DNA from: Phoronis australis | Lineage: Eukaryota > Animalia > Phoronida | DNA length: 64,000 bases | NCBI GenBank assembly: GCA_002633005.1 | Contig: NMRA01000343.1 | Span: 62,001 to 126,000, forward strand | Direction: 5' to 3' | Shown: positions 1 to 53,900 of the stretch, piece by piece | How the letters are laid out: every line of letters starts with the position of its first letter | How positions within the stretch are numbered: the first letter of the stretch is position 1 | Made by a program: the position numbers and the translations under genes | The notes under the pieces: model-generated | The model's input: only the letters and a program-made list of their open reading frames with translations | What the model was told of the DNA's origin: nothing | Databases searched by the model: none

Positions 1-381
1 TATTAACCCCTTGAGGTTTAGATAGTCTTAGAATATTAAGTTCTTAAATTTCAGAAACATTCTGAAAATTTTTCTTCGAATTCGAGGGGCACACGCCTTC
101 GGTTAAAATTTTTCCACAAGGAAAACATTTTTCTGATCATTCAAATCAGAATTTCTCAAAAAAAAAGTTCATTTTCCAATTGGCATACATTTGGGATTCA
201 AATTCTTGATATTAAGTATTGAGATTTGAGCATGGAATCTAAACTAAATGGATTTGTTTTATGAACAATAGACTTCTTGCAGTTCAAAAAATATTACAAA
301 TTTAATTATAAGTTAGGTAAGTTAAATGTCACTATTGCCTTGCTCCACTATAACTGCGTAACTCATTCCACTCCACCCTAG

Positions 382-3300
382 GTGTCTGAGAACTTGCTAA
401 GTATCTATCTGGATGAGTATGAAGAAACCCCCTGGGATGCCTTGAAATACTTGATTGCTGGTATCAACTACGGGGGTCACGTGACCGATGACTACGATCG
501 TCGACTGCTGATGACTTACATATCTGAGATGTTCTGTGAGGAGACCATTGCAGCACCATTCTTTAAGTAGGTTCCTTTCTTGGCAAAGTTCTGTGCCTTG
601 TAGTTTACTTAATTAATAGTTTCTTTGTTGAAATAATTCTTTGGAATATAGACAGTATTTATTAAAAATTAAGTGGCATTTTGTCCAAGCAGGCACGTGT
701 TATGAGTGTTTCCAAAGATCTGGCCCCTCCCTTCCCAGTCATTTTTCCTTGACTGTAATGGAGGGTCCCTCTTTTAATGGTCCTCTGGGCCATGATCCAG
801 AATGAAAAAATAATGTCAAAACTAGGCCTAATTCTAACGAATTCATTAAACTCGACAACTGTTGATCAATCATTATTGAATAACAATCTCTTCAACAATT
901 TTTTTATTCAGACTGTCGTCTCTACCCACGTATTACGTGCCAAAGGATGGACCACTCAACTCCTACAAAGAGTATGTTAGTATGCTACCCAACATTGATC
1001 ACCCCGAGGCTTTCGGCCAACACCCCAACGCTGATATCGCCTCGCAGATTGCCGAGACCAGGATGTTGTTCGAGACCCTGCTCTCGCTTCAGCCGCAGGT
1101 GTCCTCAGGAGGTGGAGAAAGCCGTGAAGATAAGGTGAGTTTGGCCGCAGTATTACTGTGTCATGTTGGAGAACATTACATTTTGGTTTGGTCGATAAAT
1201 CAGTGTTTAAATATCCAATTTACTCCAAAAAAATTAGAATTCCAAGACTGACAACTAGGTATTACAAATTTCTTCTGCTCAGTTTACAAAATGGAGGATG
1301 CACTGACATTTGGAACATGAATGATCATCACAGACTTGGGTACTGTGTGTGCACGAGAACAGTACATAGCACAACTGGTGGTCCCGATGGCTGGGTGGAC
1401 TTGAAGCTGTCCCCGGATTACTGAAGGTCATAGGGTTCAAGCAGAAATCTTTTTGGACTTTATAATCAGGTCAGATAATGTGACCATGTATGTGGGTATC
1501 TGCGGTATACATTTACATAATATGCAGTCATTCTAGTTGCGTGTTAAAATATGTGGTCAAGTCATTTTAAAAATGAAAAAGTTAGTGTTAATTAATTAAG
1601 ATTTGTCTTCACAATTAAGTACTAATTAAAATTCCAGGTGTTGGATTTGGCTGCAAACATTGGCAAGCAGGTCCCAGAAAATATCGACTACGAGGGAACA
1701 GCTAAGATTCTGTCTGTTGACCCTTCACCTTTGAACGTTGTCTTACTGCAAGAGGTAAGAGCATGGAATACTTTTTAGAAAAAATGTAATTTATTGTCAC
1801 AAAATTCATTTTCAGTTCAAATGAGGCAGCCTCTTGAATTAACAGAAGTTTTGAGCATATTTTCCGCCTTGCAACTCACCTATATTGGTTTTGGCTGTGC
1901 GGTTTCCTGGTGCTCTGGTGTTTTTTTGTATGTTTTAAACTTACAAGACTTTGAATTTATTTTGCTTCTCATTTATTAGTTTTTCAGGATGTTGATGCTT
2001 GGCGTGTAGCAGCCATGAATTATCACAGCCATGACTGTGTTTTATGTCAGATATAAAAAATAATTTCTCTCTCAGCAAGTCTCATTTTCTTGACTGTTAA
2101 GTTACTTGTTGGCGATAAATTTCATAAATTCCTTTCATATTTCAGATTGAGCGTTATAACGCACTGTTGAATGAGATCCGCCAGTCGCTGTCTGACCTTG
2201 AGAAAGGCATACAGGGTCTGGTAGTGATGTCATCTGAGCTGGAGGACATCTTTAATTGTATCTACGACGGCAAGGTGCCGCCGGCGTGGCTTAAAGTGAG
2301 TCTGAGCTATGAAGAGTCTTAATTATCATCCCAAAAAGTTTATAAAATGGCTATGGTTCAGTGGTGTGGAAATGAGGCTCTAAAGTTCGTTTGAAACTCA
2401 GACTGACCACACATCTAGTGATGCCTGCAATGAGTTCCACAGGGAATGCTGGGTAAAACATGGCCAGATACCACCAACTGACTGACTGCCTTTATATCAC
2501 CTGAAATGTGAAAGTGTGCTAACGATTTATCAATTTTCGAATTTGCGGTAAAAATCTTTTAGTCCCTGGCCCTGAACCAAATTAGCTTACTATCTTTGCA
2601 TTTATATTTTGTCTCATATATTAAACTTGGCTATCATGAAAAGTATGTACTCTGTTGATAATTCTTTTTTACTAAAATTTTCTATAAAACCTTGAAAAAG
2701 GCAACGTCCAAGAAACATTGCACAGATTCACTTTTGGTGGTTATTTTTACTGCAGCTTTCCATTTTTAAAATGGACAAATCTGGGTTTTAGTAGAAAATA
2801 TGTCACTCACCTGTGACAAAATATTGGTTAATAGGAATTTACCCTTTTCTCTTCGGAATCCATTAAATCCTAAAATCATTGGATTTCGATGTTTATAACA
2901 TAAACTTTTCTACTGCATCTTTACATTGTTGTCTTGTCTATCCACAGGCGTATCCATCACGTAAGCCCCTGGCCTCCTGGACACGTGACCTGGTCAAGCG
3001 CCTGGAGCACTTCGCCAACTGGGCCCTGACCGCCCACCCACCTCTCCTCTTCTACCTGGCCTACTTCACCTTCCCAACCGGCTTCCTGACTGCTGTACTA
3101 CAGACCTCCGCTCGACAGAATAATGTCTCAGTTGACTTGCTATCCTGGGAGTTCTCAGTCATGACTGTTGATGACTCCAACTTGACTGGTGCACCAAAGG
3201 TGAGAGATATTGAAGAGTGTGTATACCTCGCCCATTTGGGTGATCGTCCAGGGCATTTTAACCATGAAACTGAAAAATTCAGCTGAAGGTAGTGAAATGT

Positions 3301-4313
3301 GGTTGCTTAAAGGTGAAATTTCCTAAGATTTGTGGGTGAGCATTGTTCATCTGAAAATGATAGTTTGGTTGTTTGGCAACTTATTTAAGTGTATTTTTTA
3401 ATTGAAAATTTATTAGAAATTTCAATATTTTCCATTATTTTTCACCAGGACGGTGTGTTGATCAAGGGCTTGTTCCTAGAGGGCGCCGGCTGGGACAAGA
3501 AGAATGCGTGTCTGGTCGAGGCCAATCCCATGATGCTGGTGTGCCCCATACCCACAATACACTTCAAACCGGTCGAGAACAAGAAAAAGACTGGAAAGGG
3601 TAGGTGTTGAGTTTTGCGGTGTGGCACCGTGCCTCTTCCTGCACTGTCTTGTGGTGATGTCACCATTGCAGTATACTGGTGTTGGTGTTTCTTTATTGCC
3701 AAGTAAATGCCATGCAATGTGGCAAAGTTCATCTTGTTTCATTGTAGTCTTGGTAGAAATGTGAAAGAAATCGAAAGAAAATAATTGTGGGTCATTTAAG
3801 AATTAGCTGAAAATTTATTGTTCTGGAATTTATCTATCAACATTTTGACAGGAAGTGAGATGCAGTGGAACTGGGTTACAATGACCTCATGGTCGGTTCA
3901 TGAGTTCCAAGCCAACTGTACCATGTTCAACTTGCTTCGGTTGCAGTGATCTTGTGTTGCAACAAACATTTGAGAAAGGTCACGGAGGGTTCGTTGTAAC
4001 AGGGTTGTACTATAGGTGATCCACTTCGTCATTCCAACTTGGCAAAGTACTGATGTGTGAAAAACACGGAACAACTTCCTTGAGATATTTGTCATTTGTA
4101 GTGTCATTGGGCCTCTTATAGTTCTTTCTTAATTCCAGTCGTTATATGTATGTTACAGGTATGTACAACTGCCCCTGTTATTACTATCCAAATCGCGCGG
4201 GCGGTAGTGGTCGCCCCTCGTTCGTGGTGGGCGTCGACCTCAAGTCTGGTGACAAGGGATCAGACCATTGGACCAAGCGAGGTACTGCCTTGTTGATGAG
4301 TCTGGACTCGTAA
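382..4313 (+). CDS. DNAH2: Axonemal dynein heavy chain 2, 3' end (last 7 coding exons; gene begins upstream of the window)
   Basis: Exons read from sequence with AG/GT boundaries and consistent phases: 382-566, 912-1134, 1638-1754, 2146-2295, 2948-3199, 3449-3599, 4159-4313 (TAA). Dynein AAA6/C-terminal motifs include PWDALKYLIAGINYGGHVTDDYDRRLL, HPEAFGQHPNADI, VVLLQEIERYN, FTFPTGFLTAVLQ and GLFLEGAGWD. The C-terminus MYNCPCYYYPNRAG...HWTKRGTALLMSLDS resembles vertebrate DNAH2 as recalled. Confidence 0.93.
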
Positions 4314-9200: not shown

Positions 9201-11230
9201 GTAAAAGTCCAATTTTCAAAGCACCTCATACAAAAGTGGAACATTTTAAAAACAACTGCTAACAAAGTTTTGGAGAAGATGGCATAAAACATAGCATGTG
9301 AAAGTTTGGTATGAATCAGATCTACCGTCTGGGAGGTACGATGTTCCAAAGTTGGCCAAGTTTGGACATCAGTTTCTCGAGCGTACTGCACAATCTTAAA
9401 AACGCTTAGATGTGTGCTTGTTAATCAGTTTTTATGAGCTAATTGTCTCATCAACTCGGTAAAAAACATTCTCATCAACGAAAGAAAAAATATATGTATG
9501 ATGTTTGCAGATTTTCTTTGGCACGCTATTTTAGCTGATTTGCAGGAGACTTCGCGTACTATGATCATACAATTATTCATATTCATGATCTATGAGCCTT
9601 CATTTACCAATACAAACTGTAACTGAACATACTACGGAAAATTAGGACTGACTTACCGTGGTATAGCAATTTCGCGCCGTCAAAAATTCCCAGGATCGCC
9701 AGTTTGGTAACAGCCGCTTTTTTCATAGCTTCGAACTCTTCGCGGTAAGCGTTCAATAGACGGTTAGTGTTGGCCTCGAACTCTTTAGCCAGGCCTTCGT
9801 ATACGTTCGGAGTACCTGGAAAATCACAACGTAAAAAGGATACCAAAACCCTGTTTTGGCCCATTGAAAAATATCAAAAACAACTTTTCAATCTAGATTT
9901 CTGACACAGAATAATGCTATGTAATCTTCGACAGCCTTCAAAAGTTTGGAGCAAAATTGGGAATCTCCTTACAAACTCTGCTGGACGGGCAAGCGTGACC
10001 TACGACGTAGGTTCGGTCAAAGGCAAGTCTACGCGAAGGCCGATGCTGCATTGTTGCATGGAGCGAAGTTCACGTTCAAGCTCAGCGCACGTGTTCATGA
10101 ATTGACAACAAAAGTTTAGGATGCGTCAGAATTAGTTAAAATCAGAGTTACGACCTTTTAAAAACGGGGCAAAAATTTCCAAGAAGGTGTCTACACGCTC
10201 GACGTTTATCGTTTATAATACTATGATGTCTATGGTTTCTCCAATCGCGTACCGGCGCTTAGGCCTAAATGAGCGTATGTGTGGTGTACATCGTCGAGTA
10301 AAATTAATGCATACCAATTTTTCTTGTAATAGACACGACTAGGTAAGCGATGTTGCCGGATTGTTGGGCAAGATCATTGTTGTACGCAAGGATGTCAGTC
10401 ATGTCTTTGTACAACTTCCTGAAATAATACAAAATAACATACTCTACTAATAAGTTACATGAATTTTGGACTATAATAACAAGAAGACAATAGTGCCCTT
10501 CCCATGTGAAGACTACCTTACTATAGTCCCACTATTTTTTAAGCAAATATTTTCTAAGATTTTTTGCTTTGGTACAAAAGTTTTCTGGGATCTTGGGTTC
10601 CATCAAATTTTGAAAGATTATTCCCGGAAAATTTATTCATGATGTGACCTTAGTTTACTTAAGTAAAATTCTAAGCCATACAGCTCTGGACCAATGGTAG
10701 TGTTGAAACTTATGTTCTGACTACATCTGTTATAAGTCTCACTGATGTCTTTTTGACGCCTGCCAATAGGGCCTAAAAAACCTGCTAGGGTTGCATGGAG
10801 TCACAACAGGTTAGTGGAAATAACTGCAAAAAGATTCATGCGAAACTTCTGAGACTGAAGTACATTTCAATGCTACTAGTGGTAAAATGTCTTTGTGGTA
10901 ACAGTAATAAAAATCCAGGAGTAGCGTTACGTGTATTTTACGTGGTGAAATAATTTGTACTCGAAATTATTTTTGGCATTTTCCATTCCATCATAAATGT
11001 CTAATATTCTATGCTCTAGTACTTACGGTTTAAGCACATGAGTTTCTAGTCCAATTTCACATTTGATCAACCGTAGAGTTTTGAGCTACAAACACGAGTA
11101 AAAACTCGAGATTTCGAATAAAAACCCGAAATTTTGAGTTCCGATTCGGACTTTTAGCCTAAATGTTGGTGTCTTCAAGTGCAAACTAGGATTAGACAAC
11201 AATTCGCCTAATGTTGATAATAATAATAAC

Positions 11231-11273
<43 letters not shown>

Positions 11274-14200
11274 GTAAATCTAAATAATAATATTAGTGAT
11301 AGATGTAATGACAAGAATGAAAATATATTATGTTAAAGCAGTTTGAAATCAAGTCGTGACAAAAACATAATTTTTGATTAATACCACGCGCCACTATAAA
11401 TTTTGTCACGACTTGTTCCTCTCATCGTAGGTTGTCACTGATTTCATAATTATAAATACTGACTCGTTTGCGACATCTAGATCGTCAAGAATCTTAAACT
11501 TGGGTTTCAGCTCTGTCTCCAGCTTGTTAATGCTCTTCTCCAGTTTACAAATGTCTGGCTCGTAGACACACCCATTGCTGACTACATTGGTAATGCTGAG
11601 CGTCAAGTCAAGGATATCTGTGATGATTGAGATGACGCTACCAATACCTCGCTCGACGCGACCTGCGCACAGAAATGAATTGATACCCGGGGCCGAGATC
11701 TAATCTTTGAACTCGAAATCGAAAATATTTTTAGCATTTTCTATACCACTTTTATGCCAATTCAAGATAAGTATCCACTGTACTCTGATCGTGTACAAAA
11801 ATAATTTTGAGTTCGATCTCGATCAAAAAGATTAGACACCGGGCCCAAAAGAGACGTCAGTGTTGTCTGCTCCAACCACTTTCGTTCAACACAGAGCATT
11901 CGTTTGCTTCCGTGTGACCTTTTCCTGGTATTGTTAACTGAATCGAAAGCAGCAGGCAGACATTATGCACCTCCCTGCAAAAAGGGGATAAAGTGCACAA
12001 GCTCAAAAGCTCACAACAATTGTATTTTGTTCACAATCAATAAGCGTGTCAGTGTTAAAGATTCTATACTACATTCCAAAATACAAATGAAAGATTCGCG
12101 TCAGTATTTCCAAATTTGCCGGCCAGTTCTTTCATATGAGATTTCCGTTTTTTCTCATAAATATGTCTTTTAACTATGCGTCCCATACAGACTGGTCCAC
12201 ATTCCTTTATTTCAGTAAATTTTTGCATTGGTCTAACGACACACAAACAATTTTGGTTGATCATAATTCATCATGATAAAAGATTTTTAATATGGATTCA
12301 TATCAACCATTCATATGAATTATTATCAACCATTTTTATCTTATTATAATATTCATATGAATTCATAGAAATGGTTGATATAATTTTTTTCATCCAAGGT
12401 TTATCATCTATCGTGATTATTTATGATGATTTCTTTATCACTGAGCTATGATGAATGACCAAGCGTGGTTGCCCATGAATGACGTTATGGGTGATTCATT
12501 TATCACCAACCTTATGATCATTTATCACCAACCAGATATGAATTCACATCAACCAAAATGGGAGTGTAGGTCAAGACTGAATGGAACTGTGGAAACGTTT
12601 AGTGTGATTTTTGATTGGTCTGTGAACACACTCACTCCTCCCACTGGCACAAAGTGTCGGCCGAAAAGTTGGTCAAAGTCTGGGGCAGATCCATGATTTT
12701 TTAAGAGGGGGGGGGTCTAAGTCAACAACTTGAAAATTCTAGATTTGATGTCACTAAAATCCGCCTAGTCGAAAATCCCCGACTTCTCTTCAACTTGTCG
12801 AGCGACACCTGCAATACGTCGCGCGACACGAAGGCAACCTTTTTCCATGTCATTTTGAGCTAAAATAAGGTTGGTTGGTTATCCTAGACATATTTTCCAC
12901 TTAATTACAGCTTTTCGTAATTTTGTTAATTACTCGTCCGCTACTCCGGAAGTGACGTTTTAGGAGGCAAGCATTTCGCGCCAATTTCTTTTCATATAGT
13001 CTGACTGTGAGAGCTGCCGACTCAGTCATTGTTCTACCTCGGTTGTGTTAAGTTCCATCGTCGTTTGCTTTCATTTACTATTCGCATGCCACACTGTTTC
13101 TGCGTACCGGGATGTACTAATTATCGTCTCACGCGCGCTTTGGGAGTACCTTTGCATCGCTTTCCGATGGATGACACACTTCGCCGTACTTGGCTCTTTC
13201 GTGTGAAGAGCGCAGCGTTACCCGTCCACGCAACGTACAAAGCAGTCGAGAATACCGTGTGTGCGGCAAGCACTTTCTGCCCTCCGGTTACGAAAGGGAT
13301 TTGTACGCTGAACTGATGAAGGTCCCTGCGAAACAACGTCTGAAGCAGGATGCCACTCCGTCCGTGTTAATTCCCGGCAGTGCCCCGTCGCCACCCCCGA
13401 GATGTGTGTTTTTGAAGCCAAAGCCTCGCGAGCTGTGGCCAGTACAGTGACTGGAGCCAGTGGAGGCACTTCATCTATTGTCACCCGTGCCTCCGAACGT
13501 ACCCCAGAGCGTGCCATTCCTGGAACCAGTAGTGATTCGCCCTGTGCTGTTTTCTCCAGCCCAGAGCCTCTAAGCAGCCCTGCAGCGATATTGAGTACAG
13601 GACCAGTTCGACACCCAGTGAAGAGGACACTTCGTCGTCCAGTGAACAATAAACTTATCAAAGTTTGGCTCACCGGGTGAGCCAAACTTTGATAAATTTA
13701 TTGTGGACTTGTCTAAAGTGTTGTCGCTATTTAGAATGTGCCAGGTGTGAGGAGAGGGTGTCACACGACACGATGTAAGCAGTTTGGGTGCTCAGGTCGC
13801 CATCCAGTGGGAATGTGTCGCGGGACACTCTGGCAAGTGGGACAGTTGTTCCTCTGTCCGTGGTATGCCGGAGGTCTACTTAACCGTGTCCGGTAGTGGC
13901 TTGGCCTCGTCGAACTCTGAACAGCACAAGCATTCCATTGAGGTAGGCATAACAACGCACACAGTGCATTTGCACCAAGATGTATCACCACGTCTGTCCT
14001 CAGTAGCCGCTTCATTTCTGTCAACAGCTGCCTGTGCCTGTGCGTACTCTGCCTCGTTATACTCGGGCTCAAACATGTACCCACCCACTGAATGTCCGTG
14101 AAAAAATTCTTCGTCACCACTGCTGTGAACAAGGTCTCCGTCACTCACACTACTGTTACTGTGATACGGGTCACCGAGTCCAGCAATTTTCAGCTTACAA

Positions 14201-15091
14201 CACTCTAAACAATCCCTAAATCCAACGTAGTTGAGTTCTCTACTAACCTATGTTGCCGCAGAATACTCGCCGATGGAAAGTGGTGGCGACAATTGTTGAA
14301 AAACAGCACAAAACAAAAGTAGAACAGAACAGATTCGCACGGTAAACTCAACGCAAAACCAAGTGGCGGGAAACGCTTGCCTCCTAAAACGTCACTTCCG
14401 GAGTAGCGGACGAGTAATTAATAAAGTTACGAAAAGCTGTAATTAAGCGGAAAATATGTCTAGGATAACCAACCAACCTTATTTTAGCTCAAAATGACAT
14501 GAAAAAAGGTTGCCTTCGCCTTTGGAGTCACTCACACGCGCGGCGATTTCGATGGCGGCCGACATGTCGCACAAATTTTTGGCCGACAATGTGGCTCGTC
14601 TGAAACGATCTTCAATGGGCTATAAACCTACATACCCGCTAAATCACAAAACCAAACTTTGTTTTATACGACTTGACGTTGTGAAATTGGTCTCAGACTT
14701 GTTCCTTAGTCGTGGTAATTTCACAAACCAGGCTTTACATGATGGCTTGTCACATACGGCGTGATAGGTCAAGTATGGTCTCTAGGAATAACGAACTGTC
14801 AGCTCTTTAAAAACCCAGAAATTACTTCTCATCTCAGTAAGGAACAAACTGAGACCAACTTTGCAGCGATAATAATTCTAAGTAAGTAAAAAATCTCTTC
14901 TTGGAAAAACACCGGTTTATAGTCGCTTTAGTGAACGAGATTTGTCGATAAAAATGCTGAGTTTGCAGACAATTGCCACCACCCTGAAGTTAACACCAGC
15001 TTACCCCAGGATCGTATTACAAGACTGACTTACCTGTTGAAGCAAAGCTGCAAGCCACGAAGGCTAGAATTACAGTTAAAGCTAACTTCAT
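6300..15091 (-). CDS. Uncharacterised secreted alpha-helical/coiled-coil protein, 424 aa, 8 coding exons
   Basis: Minus-strand exons: 15091-15034 (MKLALTVILAFVACSFAST, signal peptide), 11662-11464, 10418-10315, 9815-9657, 8734-8544, 8038-7888, 7373-7165, 6503-6300 (TAA). All 7 introns are GT-AG, with phases 1,2,1,1,0,1,0 joining into one open frame with no stops. The ORF track shows only fragments of it. Confidence 0.85.
11217..11272. repeat. (AAT)n microsatellite
   Basis: About 18 near-perfect AAT units in an intron. Confidence 0.9.
12174..12569. mobile_element. Degenerate MITE-like element with internal short inverted repeats
   Basis: Ends ctatgcgtcccat / atgggagtgtag are imperfect inverted repeats. 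Internal ttttggttgat ... atcaaccaaaa and repeated atcaacc/ggttgat and ttcatatgaa motifs. Confidence 0.35.
13086..13880 (+). pseudogene. Frameshifted THAP zinc finger plus N-terminal fragment of a Kolobok-type transposase
   Basis: MPHCFCVPGCTN..LHRFP..RRTW, then a frameshift, then RVCGKHF..YERDL..RLKQDATPS (C2CH THAP signature with AVP-like box). Downstream: KFIVDLSKVLSLFRMCQV*G...GAQVAIQWECVAGHSGKWDS, in which a CxxC motif is broken by TGA. No DDE core remains. Confidence 0.75.
13646..13704. repeat. 29-bp-arm palindrome (1-nt loop, 1 mismatch) inside the transposon
   Basis: acaataaacttatcaaagtttggctcacc-g-ggtgagccaaactttgataaatttattgt. Confidence 0.9.
13876..14148 (-). pseudogene. Truncated KolX-like accessory ORF (P2X7 C-terminal 'ballast'-like Cys cluster)
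   Basis: YMFEPEY...RRGDTSWCKCTVCVVMPTSMECLCCSE matches the WCxCxxC...ExxCC motif. It is convergent with the transposase and cut at the deletion junction. Confidence 0.7.
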
Positions 15092-18082
15092 GGTAATGGC
15101 TCTCTGAAAGAGTTTAAGACCAATACTTTATGATCACCGATTTCTACTGACGCAAGATGACTGGTGAAAATATGACAGCTAATGAAGTCCATTACTAAAT
15201 AAAGCGATAAATAAAAAATTGACCGTTTATTTCCATTTACTTCTCAAGCCAACACCAGTGTGCATTATCTTACGGAGTAGCCTACCCGGTCAGAATTAGT
15301 CCACCTGTTACAAAATGCGATTTATTCAGATATCATCTGGCAATATTGGGCATCAAAAACAATGCCAGGTGACCATTGCTGTTTCCTATACTCGTAAAGT
15401 GTATTTTGCTGTCGATTTCCACAATATGTTTTTTGCAGTTTTTTTGGTGAGCCGACTCGTGGGCGGTCTTGCCGCATGGTGGCAGTATAAGACAAGTCTC
15501 TGCTGCTGTTGGCTGGGAATAAACGAGGCAAGGAGTCGACGCCCTTCCCGCAGGTACGGGGGCGCCTCCTTGCTCTGCTCCGGACACGACCAAAAAGGTC
15601 CCCGGCATCATCGTTTTCAAAGGGTCCGCGAACATTTTCTTCCAAAATGTCGATGACATCCTAAATTCGTCAGTGTGGCTTCCGCAGTAAATGAAAAAAT
15701 AGCTTAAAAAACCATACCCTGCTGCAATAGCCCTCCTGGATATTTAAGAATCAAGGTGCATTCATCGTCATAGTTCATTTAAAGAAATTTAAGTTTGCTT
15801 CTTCACGTAAGTGGGCATAAAAACGTGTAGACATTAGAAGATATAATCTGGATTTACACGAGCATAAATTGAAAAGATTTTAGCTAAAACGAATTAGCCT
15901 AAAATGTATTCTTTCCACATGACAAACCTGATGTGGCGAAAACGTTTTAACAGAGTTGAACAGCAGCTGCCGATCGTCGCACGAAATTTTATATTAAGCA
16001 TTATGTATTTACATGACCCAAAACAACTATATGGCACGGTACGTGAGCGTTGTTTTCTTTTCAATGGAAAAATGCAGTACTATGGCTGTGTGTGACGTGT
16101 TCATAGAAACAGTACTGACAGTAAAAATGTTTTGCTTTCACACGACGATTTGACTTAAAGGGTTCCGTCAAAACCTACAACAACAAATCGGGTTTAAAAT
16201 GTCGCAAGTTGTGGGAGTGACAACAAAACAAAACAAGCATTACGACATGCAAATATACAAACCACTTTACGCGGATTGGTGGAGCCCACACAGAATGTAG
16301 AAGATACGGACGATTAGGCCTGTTTTATGCAAGAACGCATATGTCGATTCCGTGTGTTGTTTGACTACGGGGTGTACCGAAAAAGACCTACACAATGTTC
16401 TAAAGTTCGGCAAGGCTCGTCATGTCAATGAAGTGAAACAACTGATGGCGAAATGCTAAAATGATGAATTTCGATAACTCAGACTGATGTCGAAGAACAC
16501 TGAACATGGGATGAAGACACTCTTTCAGTCATTTTCACTCCAGTCAAGTTCTCAGTCAAGTTCCCACCTTCTTTGGGGACAGAACTCAGTCACTGGGCAA
16601 AGTAGCCTACACTACTAATAAGAACATATCGTAAATTACAGTCCTCCATGGCAGCAACACGACCTGAATTCTGGAGTTCGCAGTCGTGCGAATGATGAGA
16701 TGATCGTACGTCCAATTTTTCATGATGGCCGGTTTGCCAGATGGCATATGATTCGAAGTTCGTACGTATTGCCAGCGCCGTCTTTGAAGTAAACACGACC
16801 GTGCAAGTATATTTGTGATCATCATATCCAGTAATCATCGGCTGTCGCTATTCCCTTATACCAGTGGTTTTAGGCTACTACAAGTTTTTCCCCCGGCCGC
16901 AATACGCATGCGAAATTTCCAACTCCTGACGGTGTTTCTATAAAATTGACGGTGAACCTATAATGTTCAGTTGGACATCAGATTTAACTTTATGTCCACT
17001 ACAAATGAATGAAAGAGGGGGCTTCAAAAGTTATTTATTCAAACTAAGCAGCAGGATAAATCATTCGGTATCATTTTACTCTAATCTTCGATGTCTACGG
17101 ATGTCGGAGCACACTCATGCATGGTGTCGAGTCACAAGAGATAAATTTCTGATAAATATGGGAGAAAAGGTGTGTTAAAATGGTTTGCTACTTACGGCCC
17201 CGGACTGAGTATATTACGTAGTGGAGAAGAGTTCATTTTAGATTTCGGTGATTTGTGTTATTTTTCCAGTCTAACCAAAACTTTGGACGTGGATGAAAGC
17301 CCCGCGCCGCCGGGCTGGCGGATGCAACTGAGATTCTGAGTAAATCGATCGCGATCTGTGGAGGCCTTCTGCAACGAAGACACGCTGGCCAAATAGTTCA
17401 GTAGGAGTCTACGGTCACTTGGGCCCGATATTGGGAGTCACTGATGAGATCACTCCTGTTGAGCTTCGGAGTAATCTCAGGCCGGCGGTGCATGGCACCC
17501 GGTGCTCACCGCGAATTACGTAACGGTAGTACAGTGCCGGCTAACACTAAAACAAAACTACCGATATAAATAATAACAGAACTACAAGTACTATTGGGCT
17601 TACTTATTTTTACAGCACTACAACTAATTTAAAAAACAGTGTTTGCATGATGGTGCCTGGAATTCAGTCACATTTTTTTAACACGGGACTTTCGAGTTCC
17701 CAGTACGTGTTGCACAAAGCTGGGTCTAATCGTATGTTGAATCGTAGATGAAACGAGTAAGAAGCTGGTTCAGAAAGTTGGTGAATTTATCTAACTTAAT
17801 CGCTTCTTTACAACAATGAAATGATCGAAATGGTTTGAACTCGAATGACTGCCTGTCCGGCGATGGAATTAGTCATCGGAGCCATGCTGAGCAGACCACT
17901 AATCTATTACCAGTTTTACTAACGCCGTTCTCATGACAATCTCAGTACTTAGGGAAATTTTTACTAGAGCCTTTGCATCGGTATACACATTTTTTATTCA
18001 ATAATAAATGTTCACGTATATACGGAGTAGCTTTGAACCTGTTATTGATAACGCGTTCAGTCTACGTTGGTTTTCAAACTTA

Positions 18083-18286
18083 CCAATAGATGTCAGCTTC
18101 AAACATTATGTACACACAACTAACTTAAAATTCAAGTTAATTATAGTTATCTGTTTAAAGCAAACATATTCTATATAGACCATCCAATAGCTATGTAAAT
18201 CAAACAATACACTAATTGATAAAATACCAAAGTTAACAATTAAAAGTGACAAATTTAGTTGTTAGTATGAAACACCTGTTAAATAT
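18083..18286 (+). promoter_or_regulatory. snRNA-type promoter, copy 1: distal CCAATAGATGTCAG element (-248) and PSE-like CACCTGTTAAATA (-58)
   Basis: Both motifs recur at the same spacing upstream of copies 2 and 3, while the intervening DNA is not alignable by eye. ATGTAAAT octamer variant at 18193. Confidence 0.55.
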
Positions 18287-18330
18287 ATAGAAAATGCTTA
18301 TTTATATTCAGACTGTACCGTACTAACTGT

Positions 18331-18405
18331 AATACGGACGTCCGGACGGACAATAACCCGCTGTCTGCGGGTTATTTTTGAAGAAGCTTGGTCCTTACCG
18401 GCTTC
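18331..18405 (+). ncRNA. Candidate Sm-class small nuclear RNA, copy 1 (~75 nt)
   Basis: AATACGGACGTCCGGACGGACAAT - stem AACCCGC/tgtct/GCGGGTT - Sm-like ATTTTTGA - 3' hairpin GAAGCTTGGtccttaCCGGCTTC. Confidence 0.6.
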
Positions 18406-19005
18406 ATAACGTTTAAGTGCAATGGAACTCAGACTTTGATGCATAACAGCTCCAATACTCACAAAATGCAACTGTGAATTCAGACAACTTACCAACTGAT
18501 TAAAACTTGGTGTCAAATTTTCGTTGCTATAGTCAAATTGCAGGTGATTTCTGACTTGAAAAAATGACGGTTCGCCAGAGACCCTGGGTTCTACAGTTTT
18601 GCTTGTCACTGCGGGACATTTTATACCGTAGGCCTACCAGACGTACTGTCAGTTTTTCCAAGCCTTCCCATATATGAGTTAGGAAGAAGTTGCGATGACG
18701 GTCAGTGGCCTAAACTGAAGATTCATGGCAACCGCGAGTTATAATAGCCGCTATAAAGGTGAATGACGTGATAAGAAAACAATTTAGATTTTATGAGGAT
18801 AGCACTGAACTGCGAATTCGAAAATAACGTATCGTTCGGCCCATTGAGTTGGTGATGGAAGTACAATTCTGTCACGGTGAGGAATAGTATAAGACTGATT
18901 TCGTGTGAGCAAAATAGGCCTAATCTGATTTTCGTTTTTTAGCCAGCTAAAACGGCGAAATGCAGATTTAACCAGACATTTATTTTACGTTGGTTCTTAA
19001 AATGG

Positions 19006-19209
19006 CCAATAGGGGTCAGCTAAAATAACACATAATGTAAAATCAACCTATTATTCGACAATATTCAATCCGCTGAAATGAAAGCACGTACATGCTGTAT
19101 AAAAATTGGCAATAAAAAAATGTAATGACAATTACCGCTGATGATGAATTTTGAGGCTTGTCTTGAAAATAAGAAATTTGGTTGTTTATTTTTTTCACCA
19201 GTTTAATAC
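19006..19209 (+). promoter_or_regulatory. snRNA-type promoter, copy 2: CCAATAGGGGTCAG (-248) and PSE-like CACCAGTTTAATA (-58)
   Basis: Same motifs and same spacing as copy 1. ATGTAAAAT at 19035. Confidence 0.55.
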
Positions 19210-19253
19210 ACGTTGAAGACTTGTACAATAACAGATGTCTACCATCATTTGCT

Positions 19254-19328
19254 AATCCGGACGCCGGACAGAAAACCCACCCGCTGTTTGCGGGTTCTTT
19301 TTGGAGAAGCTTGGTCCTTACCGGCTTC
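19254..19328 (+). ncRNA. Candidate Sm-class small nuclear RNA, copy 2 (~75 nt)
   Basis: AATCCGGACGCCGGACAGAAAACCC - stem ACCCGC/tgttt/GCGGGT - TCTTTTTGG (variant Sm site) - 3' hairpin identical to copy 1. Confidence 0.55.
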
Positions 19329-20220
19329 GAATTATGTCAAAACGAAGTGCAACTCCGTTTGCAGGACGACCCTCCTACTTACTGCCTAAGTTTGTGAAAC
19401 CGTTTCAGGTACAGATGTTACCCGAAAACAGCAGCCAGATCTTTTGTAGGCCTGCGGTTTTCATTGACAGTGGTAACACGTCGTACTTTCCGGCTCATCT
19501 TTTCAATTAATTATTAGAATGTTGCATAAGTCAACTAAAAATATCCCTTCTCTCACTTCATACTGTCAGATACTGTGAATGCCATCTATCTATCAGATTT
19601 CGTTGCAAAATTATCGATACTCGTTTTCACGGGACAGGTCAACCGACACCTACTGCTGAGCGCTACAAAGAGCATTCAATAACGTTTTCATTGCCTCGAC
19701 CAAATCCAATGTATAAACATTAATTAAATTTAGTTTAGCTTTTTAACATGAAGGCAGTAGTTATATCATGCAGTATAGAATGGTTGGCAGGTATGTGTAA
19801 AGTACGCAGTTTTTTGTCCTTGTACCAGTCACGACAATTAACATCGGTGCATGTGAAAAACCCTTATATGTAATGCTACGACATGTTCTGGTTGATGCTA
19901 GTGTCAGTGGGAAAACCTAGCGGTGGAACTGAACTGATGAGACACGGACTGAGAAATACCATAGATTTTTTTTAGAGATGTCTATCGTCACAGCTCGTGA
20001 GTGAACATTGGAAATGGTTAGCTAGAGTAGTCGCGATTTGAGTTCGGCCTCGGGTTGGTTCCTTAGTGTCGAGTCTCTGTTCTAACACGGCACTACAAGT
20101 TTTCCTGCGCTGCGTGTTCTTGACCACTTGTAAACTCAGAATTGTCTCAGTCAAAGCAGATTAGAATGTCCGCCTGCCGACCACCTAACCCAACAAGGCT
20201 TACCTACCGCTCAATATTTG

Positions 20221-20423
20221 CCGATAGATGTCAGTACAACAACAGAATAGTTTGCATGTAAATCAGATTTTGTAAATTATAACTCGTGCATTCAAAGTTA
20301 TTTCATACATTGTCATTAACGGGATAGTATTTAGTTAAGACAAGTAACATGGTTGTATTACTTTTGAACTCACGGGTATTATTATAATTTGTTTTGAAAT
20401 TTCTAATAACACCAGTGTAATAA
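20221..20423 (+). promoter_or_regulatory. snRNA-type promoter, copy 3: CCGATAGATGTCAG (about -247) and PSE-like CACCAGTGTAATA (about -58)
   Basis: Same motifs and spacing as copies 1 and 2. tttgcATGTAAAT octamer-like site at 20251-20263. Confidence 0.55.
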
Positions 20424-20465
20424 ACTAAATGCTTTTTATATAATAGGCCGCAGCACACTTCTCCG

Positions 20466-20546
20466 ATGCGAACAAAAAAAAAAAACTTGCAACCTGCTGT
20501 CTGCAGGTTAATTTTTGGTGAAGTTGGTCCCTTCATACCCAACTTC
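20466..20546 (+). ncRNA. Candidate Sm-class small nuclear RNA, copy 3 (~80 nt, divergent)
   Basis: ATGCGAAC(A)12CTTGC - stem AACCTGC/tgtct/GCAGGTT (compensatory C-G to T-A change versus copy 1) - canonical Sm site AATTTTTGG - 3' hairpin GAAGTTGG...CCAACTTC (covarying with copies 1 and 2). Confidence 0.6.
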
Positions 20547-20824
20547 TCTGGTGCATAATAGAATGGAGGTTAACTCTGGAGAATAAGCGTGTGTAGACTA
20601 GTGTCTGCATCAACGGTATCATTGTGATTTCGTACCTTCGGTCCTCACTCTTTCTCACATGTAGTTGTCTATTGAGGTGCTGTAGGTTTTATCGATGCTG
20701 AAGACTTTATTTCCTTTTAACCTTATTGGGTACTGTGTAGACGTAACTTCAAAACTTGCATTTATCTACCTCTATAGAGGAACAGTCCATTTTGCAGTAA
20801 ACTTTCTCGGTAAAATACTAACCT

Positions 20825-21145: not shown

Positions 21146-21948
21146 TGGCACGATATAGGGTATAGTGAAAACGCGCATTTTAAAATGTGTCGGTTTTTGA
21201 CAGTGAAATCGACACATTTCGTTTCGCGACCAAAACCCGCGGAAACTTCCTAATCATGCCCGGAGTAACAAAAGTCCGCAAACCTCAAATCTCAGTCCCG
21301 TCTCCGCTCCGCCAATGAACTTACCCGTGCGCCCCCTGTCTTTAACTGGCCAGTACGGACGTGCGCCCCCTGTGTTCAATTGGCCAGTATGGACGTGCGC
21401 CCCCTGTCTTCCACTGGCCAGGCTCCGACCCGACGGCTACCGTGATTCCGCACTCCGGCGCCGATACTCATATACACATTTCTTTGAACTCGCAAAATTG
21501 TTCAACCCAACGTTTCTGAAAGCGACACAAATGGCCAATAATCGACACATTTTCTTTGAACTTAGAAANAGGGCGGAGCCCGGCGGCTGGCAGGCCGGTC
21601 TGTCCCTGCGTTGGCGGTCGTGATGCCGCGGACTAAGTGCCGACCGGCATATATATTTTATGTGCATGGTCTCCCAGTATGGCATCTGGAGCGGTTCACA
21701 TACTAAAAGGCCTGACCTGCTACCCTGCGGCCACGTATCCATTAGGCCTACGGTTGGCGGAGGACTGTCCAACTGGAAGAAGTTCGCGCCCGCTGTCCCG
21801 CTGCCAGAAAGTGACGATCCAGTAGGTGATCGCTGTTTAATCAGCAATTTTTTGCGGGTTTTTGTTGAGAAACGAATTGTGTCGATTTCACCGTCAAAAA
21901 CCGACACATTTTAAAATGCGCGTTTTCACTTTACCCTATATCGTGCCA
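21146..21948. mobile_element. Non-autonomous DNA transposon with ~95-bp TIRs
   Basis: tggcacgatatagggtatagtgaaaacgcgcattttaaaatgtgtcggtttttgac... at the left end and its near-perfect reverse complement ending at 21948. GC-rich interior, no credible ORF, one N at 21569. Confidence 0.85.
21325..21421 (+). repeat. Three tandem ~34-bp repeats inside the TIR element
   Basis: cgtgcgccccctgt(ctttaa/gttcaa/cttcca)(c/t)tggccag x3. Confidence 0.85.
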
Positions 21949-50900: not shown

Positions 50901-53900
50901 TCCTTGAAAAACACTTATTTGTCAAATTTTGTGAACTTGGTAGATATGGAGTCATACGTAAAGAAAACCTAAATTGCCAATAGGTGACGCCATAGTAGTT
51001 GGTCTTATCCAAAATCAACATCAGGTGTATTCTCCTCAGCTGGATCATACATACCAAATTTCAACTTTCTAAAACTGCTCTGAGGTGGTGGGGTGTTACA
51101 TTATTAAAATCTCTTGGTCTATTTACACCGACCTCTTGTCTATTTACACTGTCACGATGTTTCGGTCGGTCTATTCTCCGGCCATTGTCAGGAGTTCCCG
51201 CGTTCTTAGAAGAACGAGCACGAATATGTGGTACACTCATGGTGTGATTTCTTAGTAATGATAATAATAATAATAAAGCTGTACAATATAAGCCATTCCA
51301 ACATTGAAGAAACAGATATAAATATTCAATAATTCTAACACATCGTGTCCTCAGTTGAAGTATCTTTACAATATTTATACATTAACTTACTGTGACCGAT
51401 CGAGTTCTCTTCATATCTAATGATGTAGTCCAGAATGAGACTAGTCCCTCTTGACTGCATGCAATGAATGTCCCGTCATTAGTGTCCGTGATCTTTAACA
51501 GTGTATCACGGTGGGGCCTAAAGTTCAAAAGCAAAGATCTGTCTGATTAGTTTTCTGACTACACAACAGATGGCATTCAGTACTTTTCAAAAAGGTGACA
51601 AATATCTTCCTGTTAAAAAACAACAAAATATCTCATTGACAACAAAATTTTGCATATAATTTTTTGATTTGACATTGTAAACATAGTTTCATTTATACCA
51701 GTCTTGATATAGTCCTATGATAAACATATAACCCTGATCACATGATCCCACATATGAGCCCTTCCCATGAGACCAAATCACACAGAAAACGTCAAGATTA
51801 TACTCATCACAAGCCAAAAACAGAATTACACAAAGGAAACCTTGACAATTATCGCTATTTCCATGTCAACGACATGCAAAACTTATGCTTTGTGAGAGAG
51901 GAGGTCTCAGCTTATGCTTTTGATTTCACAAATATGACGATGCAAAAACTCAACGCCTCATTCAATTCTTTTTCACATCATCAAAAATACACCGAAGCAA
52001 ATAACAGCTTGGGGCAATCATCACGGTTTGACGATAACATCCGAGCACTTTAGAAATGATTCATGTGGTAAACCTGTCCAGACCAACAAAATACCTTATA
52101 AACACATCTAGTTATTTCACTTCTAACATTTTCATCACAAAAATGTCAACAAAATGTACGTTTTAATGACTTGTGAAAACGGTTACAATGTCCAAAGCAA
52201 AAAAATCAGGTCAATTTTCAATATCTTTTACTAATGCCTTAATTAGATTGACTGAAACTCATGCAGAAAGTTGAACAAAGCGTGAAAATAAGAGATTTTC
52301 ACAATTGCACAGTTTAATCACCCAGTACACATCCAAAGTATTCACACAAAATGATCCGGAGAATTCCCCCTCATGACGGCTGGGCTGAAGCTCAATGCAA
52401 TGTCAGAGTAGTCTCCCCTGATGACTGAGAATGAAGGGGAATTAACAGCAAAGATAGCAAGGTGGCTAAGCATTTTGTAATTAGAATTTTGCCACACTTA
52501 GAGCTATTACTAGTGATTTTGCTATTAACAGAATTAGCTGTCAGGACAGGAAAACAGTACTTTGCCTGAGTACCTGTGTTGTACATTATATCGATCAAAA
52601 AACAAATGGTAACATGGTATAGTAGGCAGATATGAAGACTAATATATAACTATTATCTAAGCCCTCAGTTTCATTAATATCTTTTGTTGAACAGTTTCCA
52701 AAGACTTGAATTTAAAGTATGTGAAAATGGGTTAACAACTTTTTATGACCATTATAAAATGATTCAAACAGAAGTGCATTACTAGGAGACAGGCCACAAG
52801 ACCTCAAGATAATTATGTCGAGTATCCTATACATTGTTGTTAACTCCTGGAGACAACAAAATAAAACGCAATACTTAAAAAATCAGTTTTACTGCCTTTC
52901 AGTCTAGAAAGCGATGTATTTTTACAAAGAATGTTTTGTTCACAAATGGACTGATGTACTTCACAGATTTTATTAAGACAAATATTTGCGATAGTTTTTT
53001 TAAAATATTCTAATCACTAACACTAAGTACATTTTCACAGGAGGTAAATTGTTAAACACAGTATGTAGTATAATCACGCAATTATTGATTTTCACAGGTC
53101 AATAATTGTTTTTCAGATCCAAAAAGATGTGATTATCAGTAAAGTCTTCCCCTTTTCATTTTCAAGGAGGTAGTTAGGGTACATCCGTAACTTAAATACT
53201 GTGTAGCATTAACAACAAAGCAATGGACTGAACAAAAGTACTGAATTCAATCCTATCAAAACAAAAGTGAATTATGTTCGCATGCTTGACAAGCACGCAT
53301 GCGCTATTGAGCAATTGATGTGTTCAGCATTAAGAATCTATGAATTCATTGGATATGCACATTTTAGCGCAAATATCGCATGACGGGAACTGTCACGCTC
53401 TCGTGGAGGCTTGCAGTCAACGAGTGCTTCCTATTTTACAGTTAAACAAACAGGGTTGAGCAGATGGCTATCAAAAACTTCCAAGTATAGTCACGTGGTC
53501 GTGGTCCAGCAGTATTAAAGTCAAAATACGTCCAGCACAATAATTTGAGCTCGAATCCCAACAGAACAATAAATTCCAACAAATTTCTTCCAAGGTTTGG
53601 ATTTGTCGTGGCCAAAACATCGATTAATATGAATATTTACTGATTCAGTGTTATCGATCGTTGACGAGTTTAAAAATGTTTGAGTTTATCCAAATCACAT
53701 AATAATAATTTTGTCTTCATATATTTCAATCCGTTAATTACGTGACCATGCCGTGTTCTGGTTTCATTAGACCAGATAATATGCTTGGCAAGACTTGAAA
53801 AATGATTACGGTATCACAATATGGCCGACGAGTGAAATTCTATAATTGAACTTCATCAAAGTTCTCCACAGAAATAAAGATTAAATATGATCACTAGTGT

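Follow-up and report, generated by a model that had tools for sequence, protein, structure and literature searches.

The stretch of DNA analysed here (the window, 64 kb) carries three units on the same strand (+), whose RNA modules are predicted to begin near 18331, 19254 and 20466. From their sequence we lean towards reading them as a tandem group of three ancient paralogues, the genes of a single, hitherto undescribed family of Sm-class small nuclear RNAs (snRNAs), each copy with its own external promoter of snRNA type. Upstream of a module of about 75–85 nt, conserved blocks are found near −248, −58 and −30; RNA starts and ends are predicted from the sequence, and promoter positions are counted from the predicted start. 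The observation of the three units is real and lies far beyond chance.

Upstream boxes and their spacing

The distal box, CCRATAGRKGTCAG, lies at 18083, 19006 and 20221, which are its sole sites in the window at up to one mismatch; with one mismatch allowed over the 64 kb, three sites are observed against 0.09 expected, and none of 100 shuffles reaches three. The proximal box, CACCWGTKWAATA, lies at 18273, 19196 and 20410, with no further sites in the window. Its bare count is weak (0.97 expected; 8 of 100 shuffles reach three), and it is the fixed register of this box that carries weight, not the count. An earlier note on this DNA had described both boxes, and both are found where it placed them in all three copies. 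The copies also have, in the same register (about −32 to −24), a TATA-like box, which is easily recognised in copies 1 and 3 but weak in copy 2. Furthermore, two extra blocks are shared by copies 1 and 2 only: TACGTTGGTT at 18063/18986, 20 nt before the distal box, and AAATTTRGTTGTT at 18251/19174, 22 nt before CACC. The upstream features are as follows.

18063..18096 (+): copy 1 distal block, TACGTTGGTT, spacer, CCAATAGATGTCAG; about −268 to −235; repeat family D3
18251..18285 (+): copy 1 proximal block, AAATTTAGTTGTT, spacer, CACCTGTTAAATA; CACC at −58, resembling a proximal sequence element (PSE)
18299..18307 (+): copy 1 TATA-like box TATTTATAT; −32 to −24; read from the sequence
18986..19019 (+): copy 2 distal block, TACGTTGGTT, spacer, CCAATAGGGGTCAG
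19174..19208 (+): copy 2 proximal block, AAATTTGGTTGTT, spacer, CACCAGTTTAATA
19224..19231 (+): copy 2 weak TATA-like stretch TACAATAA, in the register of the TATA-like boxes of copies 1 and 3
20221..20234 (+): copy 3 distal box CCGATAGATGTCAG; repeat family D9
20410..20422 (+): copy 3 proximal box CACCAGTGTAATA
20437..20443 (+): copy 3 TATA-like box TATATAA; about −30

Just 5′ of the predicted start of copy 1, at 18321–18327 (+), stands TACTAAC, the yeast-type branch-point heptamer; copies 2 and 3 are without it, and its position near the copy 1 start is probably due to chance.

The near-invariant spacing claimed in the earlier note is borne out. The distance from the distal to the proximal box is 190, 190 and 189 nt in copies 1, 2 and 3, and the distance from CACC to the first hairpin of the module (hairpin 1) is 83, 83 and 82 nt. 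Between copies 1 and 2, similarity restarts 58 nt past CACC and 248 nt past CCAAT, and the offset between these two copies is exactly 923 bp at the distal block and at the RNA module alike. The DNA between the motifs is unalignable, again as had been claimed: ungapped identity between the blocks is 0.28–0.33, near the background expected from base composition, and within the blocks it is 0.75–1.0. The flanks thus appear saturated with substitutions, yet their length has been kept within 1 nt, and for this reason the spacing itself would seem to be under selection. Conservation that is patchy and locked in register suggests that selection has acted on separate elements and on the distances between them, and speaks against a recent duplication or a transposon copy. 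The pattern is what one would expect if a small-RNA gene with an external promoter of snRNA type had given rise to three paralogues long ago.

The same blocks could instead belong to a repeated DNA module that is not an RNA gene at all, for instance a Helitron or Helentron end or a cis-regulatory cassette, with chance palindromes and a chance T-run. A hairpin followed by a T-run is generic, and the Rfam matches at E ≤ 10 in this region are to bacterial, terminator-like RNAs; the tails of copies 1 and 2 contain GTCC/GGAC repeats; and the surroundings are rich in mobile-element debris, namely an inverted repeat resembling a miniature inverted-repeat transposable element (MITE) and fragments of THAP and P2RX7_C type. 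Transposon copies decay evenly, however, whereas here blocks of 75–100% identity alternate with background and lengths agree within 1 nt. The three copies are co-oriented within 2.5 kb, with none elsewhere in the 64 kb, the changes in their stems preserve pairing (see below), and the minus-strand open reading frames (ORFs) over the modules are unrelated as proteins. The earlier note had raised a transposon end as an objection to its own proposal. The many dispersed copies, unrelated flanks and even decay that would mark one are not found within the window, which holds only three clustered copies with shared upstream boxes and patchy conservation. We regard a non-transcribed repeat as improbable.

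The predicted RNA and its promoter class

Downstream of the boxes, each unit contains the hairpin, T5G tract and second hairpin that had been noted before, at 18356–18405, 19279–19328 and 20492–20546. The predicted RNAs and the GTGCA motif that follows each of them are listed here, with the minimum free energy (MFE) where given, z-scores against shuffled sequences and scores against a covariance model built from copies 1 and 2.

18331..18410 (+): copy 1 predicted RNA, about 78 nt; 25-nt 5′ tail with CGGAC repeats, hairpin 1 (18356–18372), AUUUUUGA (18374–18381), hairpin 2 (18383–18405); MFE −30.5, z −4.15; 106 bits
18417..18421 (+): copy 1 GTGCA (within AAGTGCAA), 12 nt past hairpin 2
19254..19333 (+): copy 2 predicted RNA; hairpin 1 (19279–19295), CUUUUUGG (19297–19304), hairpin 2 (19306–19328); z −2.25; 105 bits
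19347..19351 (+): copy 2 GTGCA (within AAGTGCAA), 19 nt past hairpin 2
20466..20550 (+): copy 3 predicted RNA; 5′ tail with an A12 run, hairpin 1 (20492–20508, ACCUGC/GCAGGU), AAUUUUUGG (20510–20518), hairpin 2 (20520–20546); z −3.51; 29 bits, E 1e-5
20551..20555 (+): copy 3 GTGCA, 5 nt past hairpin 2

All three predicted 5′ ends begin with AUNCGRAC. Hairpin 1 has the consensus stem ACCYGC/GCRGGU around a UGUYU loop, and directly after it come exactly five T residues and then G in each of the three copies. The loop of hairpin 1 (CUGUYUG) and the UUGGUCC of hairpin 2 are invariant. The best-conserved stretch between copies 1 and 2 is the 26 nt spanning hairpin 2 (identity 0.95–1.0); in copy 3 this hairpin has 8 bp and an 11-nt loop, and its stem changes preserve pairing. 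This conservation, together with the pair-preserving changes, places hairpin 2 inside the functional product. Folding of the plus strand gives hairpin 1, an open U-tract and a terminal hairpin 2 in all three copies. The wobble pair U18388·G18400 would be an A·C mismatch on the minus strand, whose fold is poorer and loses the pair, and the plus strand is therefore favoured.

The layout agrees with that of an Sm site, in which RAU4–6GR stands by a 3′-terminal stem-loop: AUUUUUGA and AAUUUUUGG lie between the two hairpins of copies 1 and 3, and CUUUUUGG of copy 2 has a C in place of the A. The differences of copy 3 in the stems all preserve pairing. Hairpin 1 shows one C–G to U–A change, and hairpin 2, in its 8-bp reading, shows a C–G to U–A and a U·G to U–A change as well as the loss of a bulged U. 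The hairpin 2 changes were read by eye; MAFFT misaligned hairpin 2 of copy 3, and in the alignment made with the covariance model this hairpin was reduced to 4 bp. The earlier claim that both stems covary thus stands as far as pair-preserving changes in both hairpins are concerned, but the covariation is not significant.

The upstream blocks resemble the promoters of snRNA genes. According to published accounts, such promoters have a TATA box at −20 to −30, a PSE at −40 to −70, plus a distal sequence element (DSE) at about −200 to −250 (PMC11696126, PMC5855946, PMC5493778), and a nucleosome positioned between PSE and DSE brings their factors together (PMC11696126, PMC5855946). The human PSE consensus begins TCACC, and a 3′ box lies shortly downstream of the RNA (PMC5493778). 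The boxes at −58 and −248 fit these published positions, and CACC agrees with the start of the PSE consensus, which is that of human and not of the host. This agreement is a likeness of layout, not a test.

The same layout would also suit a type-3 gene of RNA polymerase III (Pol III), in the style of U6 or 7SK, where PSE and TATA recruit Pol III, transcription stops in T5, the product of about 49 nt consists of the 25-nt tail, hairpin 1 and a U-tail and is bound by La, and hairpin 2 lies outside it. In vertebrate snRNA genes a TATA box lying downstream of the PSE switches the gene to Pol III (PMC11696126, PMC5855946, PMC5493778). The vertebrate genes of this type (U6, 7SK, RPPH1), as described in these sources, are alike in having a DSE at about −200 to −250, a PSE at −40 to −70, a TATA box at about −25 to −30 and a T-run in which transcription ends; they are unlike the present units, which have a conserved, covarying hairpin beyond the T-run and, by Rfam, no sequence similarity to them. 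In favour of Pol III, exactly five T residues stand right behind a stable hairpin in all three copies, and no longer T-run occurs past hairpin 2. Against it, the segment that copies 1 and 2 conserve best, and whose stem changes in copy 3 preserve pairing, is hairpin 2, and this would then be situated past the terminator. Furthermore, the residue after T5 is a G in every copy, which is also what an Sm site has, and the TATA-like stretch of copy 2 is weak. In sea urchin, the U2 gene is transcribed by Pol II and requires a TATA box. The vertebrate TATA rule is also reported to differ in other organisms, which choose the polymerase by different rules (PMC5855946). Pol III transcription is in our view unlikely, although it deserves real weight. 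If hairpin 2 is inside the product, the polymerase must read through T5, and RNA polymerase II (Pol II) is favoured. The Pol II promoter that the earlier note had taken for granted is thus supported by the conservation of hairpin 2, but the TATA-like box makes a Pol III type-3 promoter a real rival.

Under the favoured reading of Sm-class snRNA genes, we infer transcription, polymerase, Sm loading and function from the sequence of the three units, and the following scheme would apply. The CACC box at about −58 would be the target of SNAPc-type factors, and the CCRATAG..GTCAG box, 190 bp further upstream, that of an activator, probably across a positioned nucleosome. Transcription would start near the predicted 5′ ends, most likely by Pol II passing through T5, and the 3′ end would be cleaved a few bases past hairpin 2. 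An Sm ring would be loaded onto the unpaired AUUUUUG(R) that separates hairpin 1 from the terminal hairpin. Partner proteins or RNAs would attach to the invariant loop of hairpin 1 and to UUGGUCC in hairpin 2, much as they do to the conserved first stem-loop of nematode SmY RNAs, and the 25-nt 5′ tail would be free to vary among copies.

Several observations weigh against this reading. In the promoter, the proximal box misfits the human PSE consensus past CACC and an A-rich 3′ half, and the TATA-like boxes near −30 in copies 1 and 3 are good ones, which in vertebrates would specify Pol III, and T5 would then be a terminator. In the RNA, the MFE folds of copies 1 and 2 pair part of the U-tract with A-rich sequence 5′ of hairpin 1, and the U-tract of copy 2 opens with C where the Sm consensus has A. 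Three sequences are too few to give the covariation any statistical power: in a formal count that scored the hairpin 1 change only, the observed score was reached by 162 of 500 shuffles. GTGCA, which misfits the human 3′ box, is barely above chance, since 820 of 20,000 random triples of 30-nt windows share some 5-mer; the motif does follow hairpin 2 in all three copies, as the earlier note had reported, but as a signal it is weak, and the GTGCA of copy 1 is a possible, weakly supported candidate for a 3′ processing box. Comparative support is also lacking, with no homologue in the metagenome, viral and prokaryote contigs scanned. Of the proposal of an undescribed Sm snRNP RNA family, then, the snRNA-type layout of the blocks, the Sm-class layout and the lack of any Rfam 15 match hold up, but the covariation carries no power.

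Searches for relatives and known Sm-class RNAs

Scanned over the 64-kb window, the covariance model of copies 1 and 2 recovers copy 3 (29 bits, E about 1e-5) and no convincing fourth copy, the next hits being the minus strand of copy 1 (13.5 bits) and position 52532 (12 bits). The module core is confined to the three units in the window, apart from a lone match with three mismatches at 9500, where the remaining features are all missing. At 17853–17872 the tail of copy 2 has an inverted match of 20 nt, but no module adjoins it on the minus strand, and it was rejected as a fourth copy. A coding exon was likewise considered and set aside: the ORFs that run across the modules on the minus strand (111 and 97 aa) belong to no Pfam family and are not similar to one another.

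At gathering scores, Rfam 15 gives no match in the whole window, and hence no other snRNA gene was found there; ARAGORN finds no tRNA or tmRNA genes. At E ≤ 10 over 17900–20800, there is no match to SmY, to the spliced leader models SL1/SL2, to U7, U11, U12 or U4atac, or to any major snRNA. The five matches obtained at this threshold (DnaX, rsmX, isrK twice and rncO) are bacterial or terminator-like, score 15–18 bits against gathering scores of 35–56, and were put down to chance. The earlier note had stated that the 5′ ends are unlike those of U1, U2, U4, U5, U7, U11, U12 and U4atac, and in Rfam none of these families matches. A DNA pattern spanning hairpin 1 to hairpin 2 has no match in the metagenome, viral and prokaryote genome contigs. 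A looser pattern, T5G..GAAG..TTGGTCC, has at least 120 metagenome matches; of 80 such loci evaluated with the covariance model, the best reached 16 bits and aligned over the seeded stretch only, and these matches were rejected as chance. The 23-nt hairpin 2 sequence does not occur in the literature searched by sequence. That the family is uncatalogued holds only relative to Rfam 15, the contig collections scanned and the literature searched with the hairpin 2 sequence.

The predicted RNAs are similar in size to the SmY RNAs, which are 70–90 nt long. SmY (RF01844) is also alike in having two stem-loops around the Sm site, a strongly conserved first stem-loop and a multi-gene family (PMC11229312). 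Unlike SmY, the present RNAs have a 25-nt 5′ tail ahead of hairpin 1 and no Rfam match even at E ≤ 10, and SmY is described as nematode-specific (PMC11229312), whereas the host here groups with spiralians (see below). The likeness to SmY suggested in the earlier note therefore survives in the layout of two stem-loops around an Sm site, but the RF01844 covariance model does not match.

The closest precedent in kind is Drosophila snRNA:LU, an orphan Sm-class snRNA restricted to one lineage that was likewise spotted by an snRNA-type promoter, an Sm site and a terminal stem-loop (PMC4053861). According to that report, the LU promoter has PSEA and PSEB, association with Sm proteins and trimethylguanosine was demonstrated by immunoprecipitation, and the function of LU is unknown (PMC4053861). 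The likeness is one of description. LU is a single intronic gene beside a U5 gene, whereas here there are three tandem copies, recognised in the DNA alone. Together, SmY and LU are precedents for lineage-restricted orphan RNAs of the Sm class.

U7 is a small Sm-type RNA with a short base-pairing 5′ tail, complementary to the histone downstream element, and a 3′ scaffold of Sm site plus hairpin, with no hairpin between tail and Sm site. The U RNAs of herpesvirus saimiri (HSURs) are described as alike in being small Sm-type RNAs with such a tail and scaffold (PMC5054213, PMC6763288). In the present RNAs, by contrast, a 17-nt hairpin separates the tail from the U-tract, the tail has no complementarity to the histone downstream element, and the U7 model of Rfam (RF00066) is unmatched; the HSURs, for their part, are viral. 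The 5′ tails of the three copies differ, with CGGAC repeats in copies 1 and 2 and the A12 run in copy 3. An imaginative extension, which we think improbable, is that the units encode programmable Sm-class snRNPs, in which a constant scaffold of hairpin, Sm site and hairpin would carry copy-specific 5′ tails that guide it to different RNA targets; such RNAs might correspond to U7 but with several targets, or they might resemble SmY as a cofactor and so betray an undiscovered trans-splicing system.

Trans-splicing enters more directly if the units are genes for short spliced leader (SL) RNAs, where the leader would be the first ~32 nt, the GU in the hairpin 1 loop (GCU/GUYUGC, the slash marking the junction) the trans-splice donor, and the Sm site and one hairpin would follow. 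The published criteria for SL RNAs include several features seen here, namely a GU in a stem-loop, an Sm site bracketed by inverted repeats, a length of about 80 nt and clustered genes (PMC7986045). Hydra SL-A RNA is 80 nt long, and diverse leaders within one species are known, with 15 SLs in Trichinella (PMC7986045). Here, the GU and the hairpin 1 loop are conserved in all three copies, and this GU is the sole one common to all of them. The dynein tree groups the host with spiralians, and some spiralian lineages trans-splice. Known SL RNA donors are of the G/GUA type, however, and the donor context U/GUCUGC or U/GUUUGC is far from it. The would-be leaders of copies 1 and 2 are about 60% identical, that of copy 3 is unrelated and contains the A12 run, and the SL1/SL2 models of Rfam are unmatched. 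Furthermore, the gap from GU to Sm site is 10 nt against a default of 20–60 nt, and short SL RNAs are reported to have the Sm site 10–35 nt past the donor GU (PMC7986045). Compared with short SL RNAs such as Hydra SL-A, the units are thus alike in length, bracketed Sm site, GU in the first stem-loop and clustering (PMC7986045), and unlike in their poor donor context, the Sm site only 10 nt past GU, and leaders that are unconserved between copies. We consider SL RNA genes quite improbable.

Neighbourhood, host and significance

Downstream of the three units, a MITE-like element occupies 21146–21948; its 109-nt terminal inverted repeats are 90% complementary and 585 nt apart, and they enclose three tandem 34-bp repeats (21326–21427), internal inverted repeats and the single N of the window (21569). 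Upstream, a THAP zinc-finger domain at 13011–13450 (+) is split over two overlapping frames covering profile positions 2–54 and 41–86, as would be the case if a THAP gene, or one derived from a transposase, had decayed through a frameshift, or if an intron had gone unrecognised. An ORF of P2RX7_C type at 13876–14247 (−) scores at the Pfam cut-off and is 93% identical to two database proteins from short contigs, an identity which implies that the host or a species very near to it has also been sequenced in another project. From 24000 to 64000, AT skew is positive and GC skew negative in a sustained manner over about 40 kb, with a GC content of 0.33–0.39 and few long ORFs; this region may be a long, intron-rich gene on the minus strand or a compositional domain.

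The window opens with the last seven coding exons of a DNAH2-like axonemal dynein heavy chain 2 gene (340–4307, +), with AAA_lid_11 and Dynein_C domains; annelid proteins are about 73% identical to it. When 25 C-terminal dynein fragments, a set without ecdysozoans, are placed in a maximum-likelihood tree, the window protein groups with annelids, molluscs and a flatworm (support 100/99), in a clade in which its own place is unresolved; the other clade holds vertebrates, an echinoderm, a cnidarian and a sponge. The axonemal dynein gene and this tree mark the host as an animal and probably as a spiralian, as opposed to an organism that, like nematodes, lacks axonemal dynein.

The catalogue of Sm-class RNAs in animals is short, comprising the spliceosomal snRNAs, U7, SL RNAs, SmY in nematodes and LU in Drosophila, and each addition to it has opened new RNA-processing biology. 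If our reading is correct, this catalogue would gain a conserved family of three genes, equipped with an snRNA-type promoter of its own, from an apparent spiralian. The cluster is also a natural footprint, since all but the functional boxes and the distances between them has been lost in these ancient paralogues, and it supplies a candidate layout of PSE, DSE and TATA box for a poorly studied lineage. Furthermore, it provides evidence of selection on the 190-bp distance between DSE and PSE itself.

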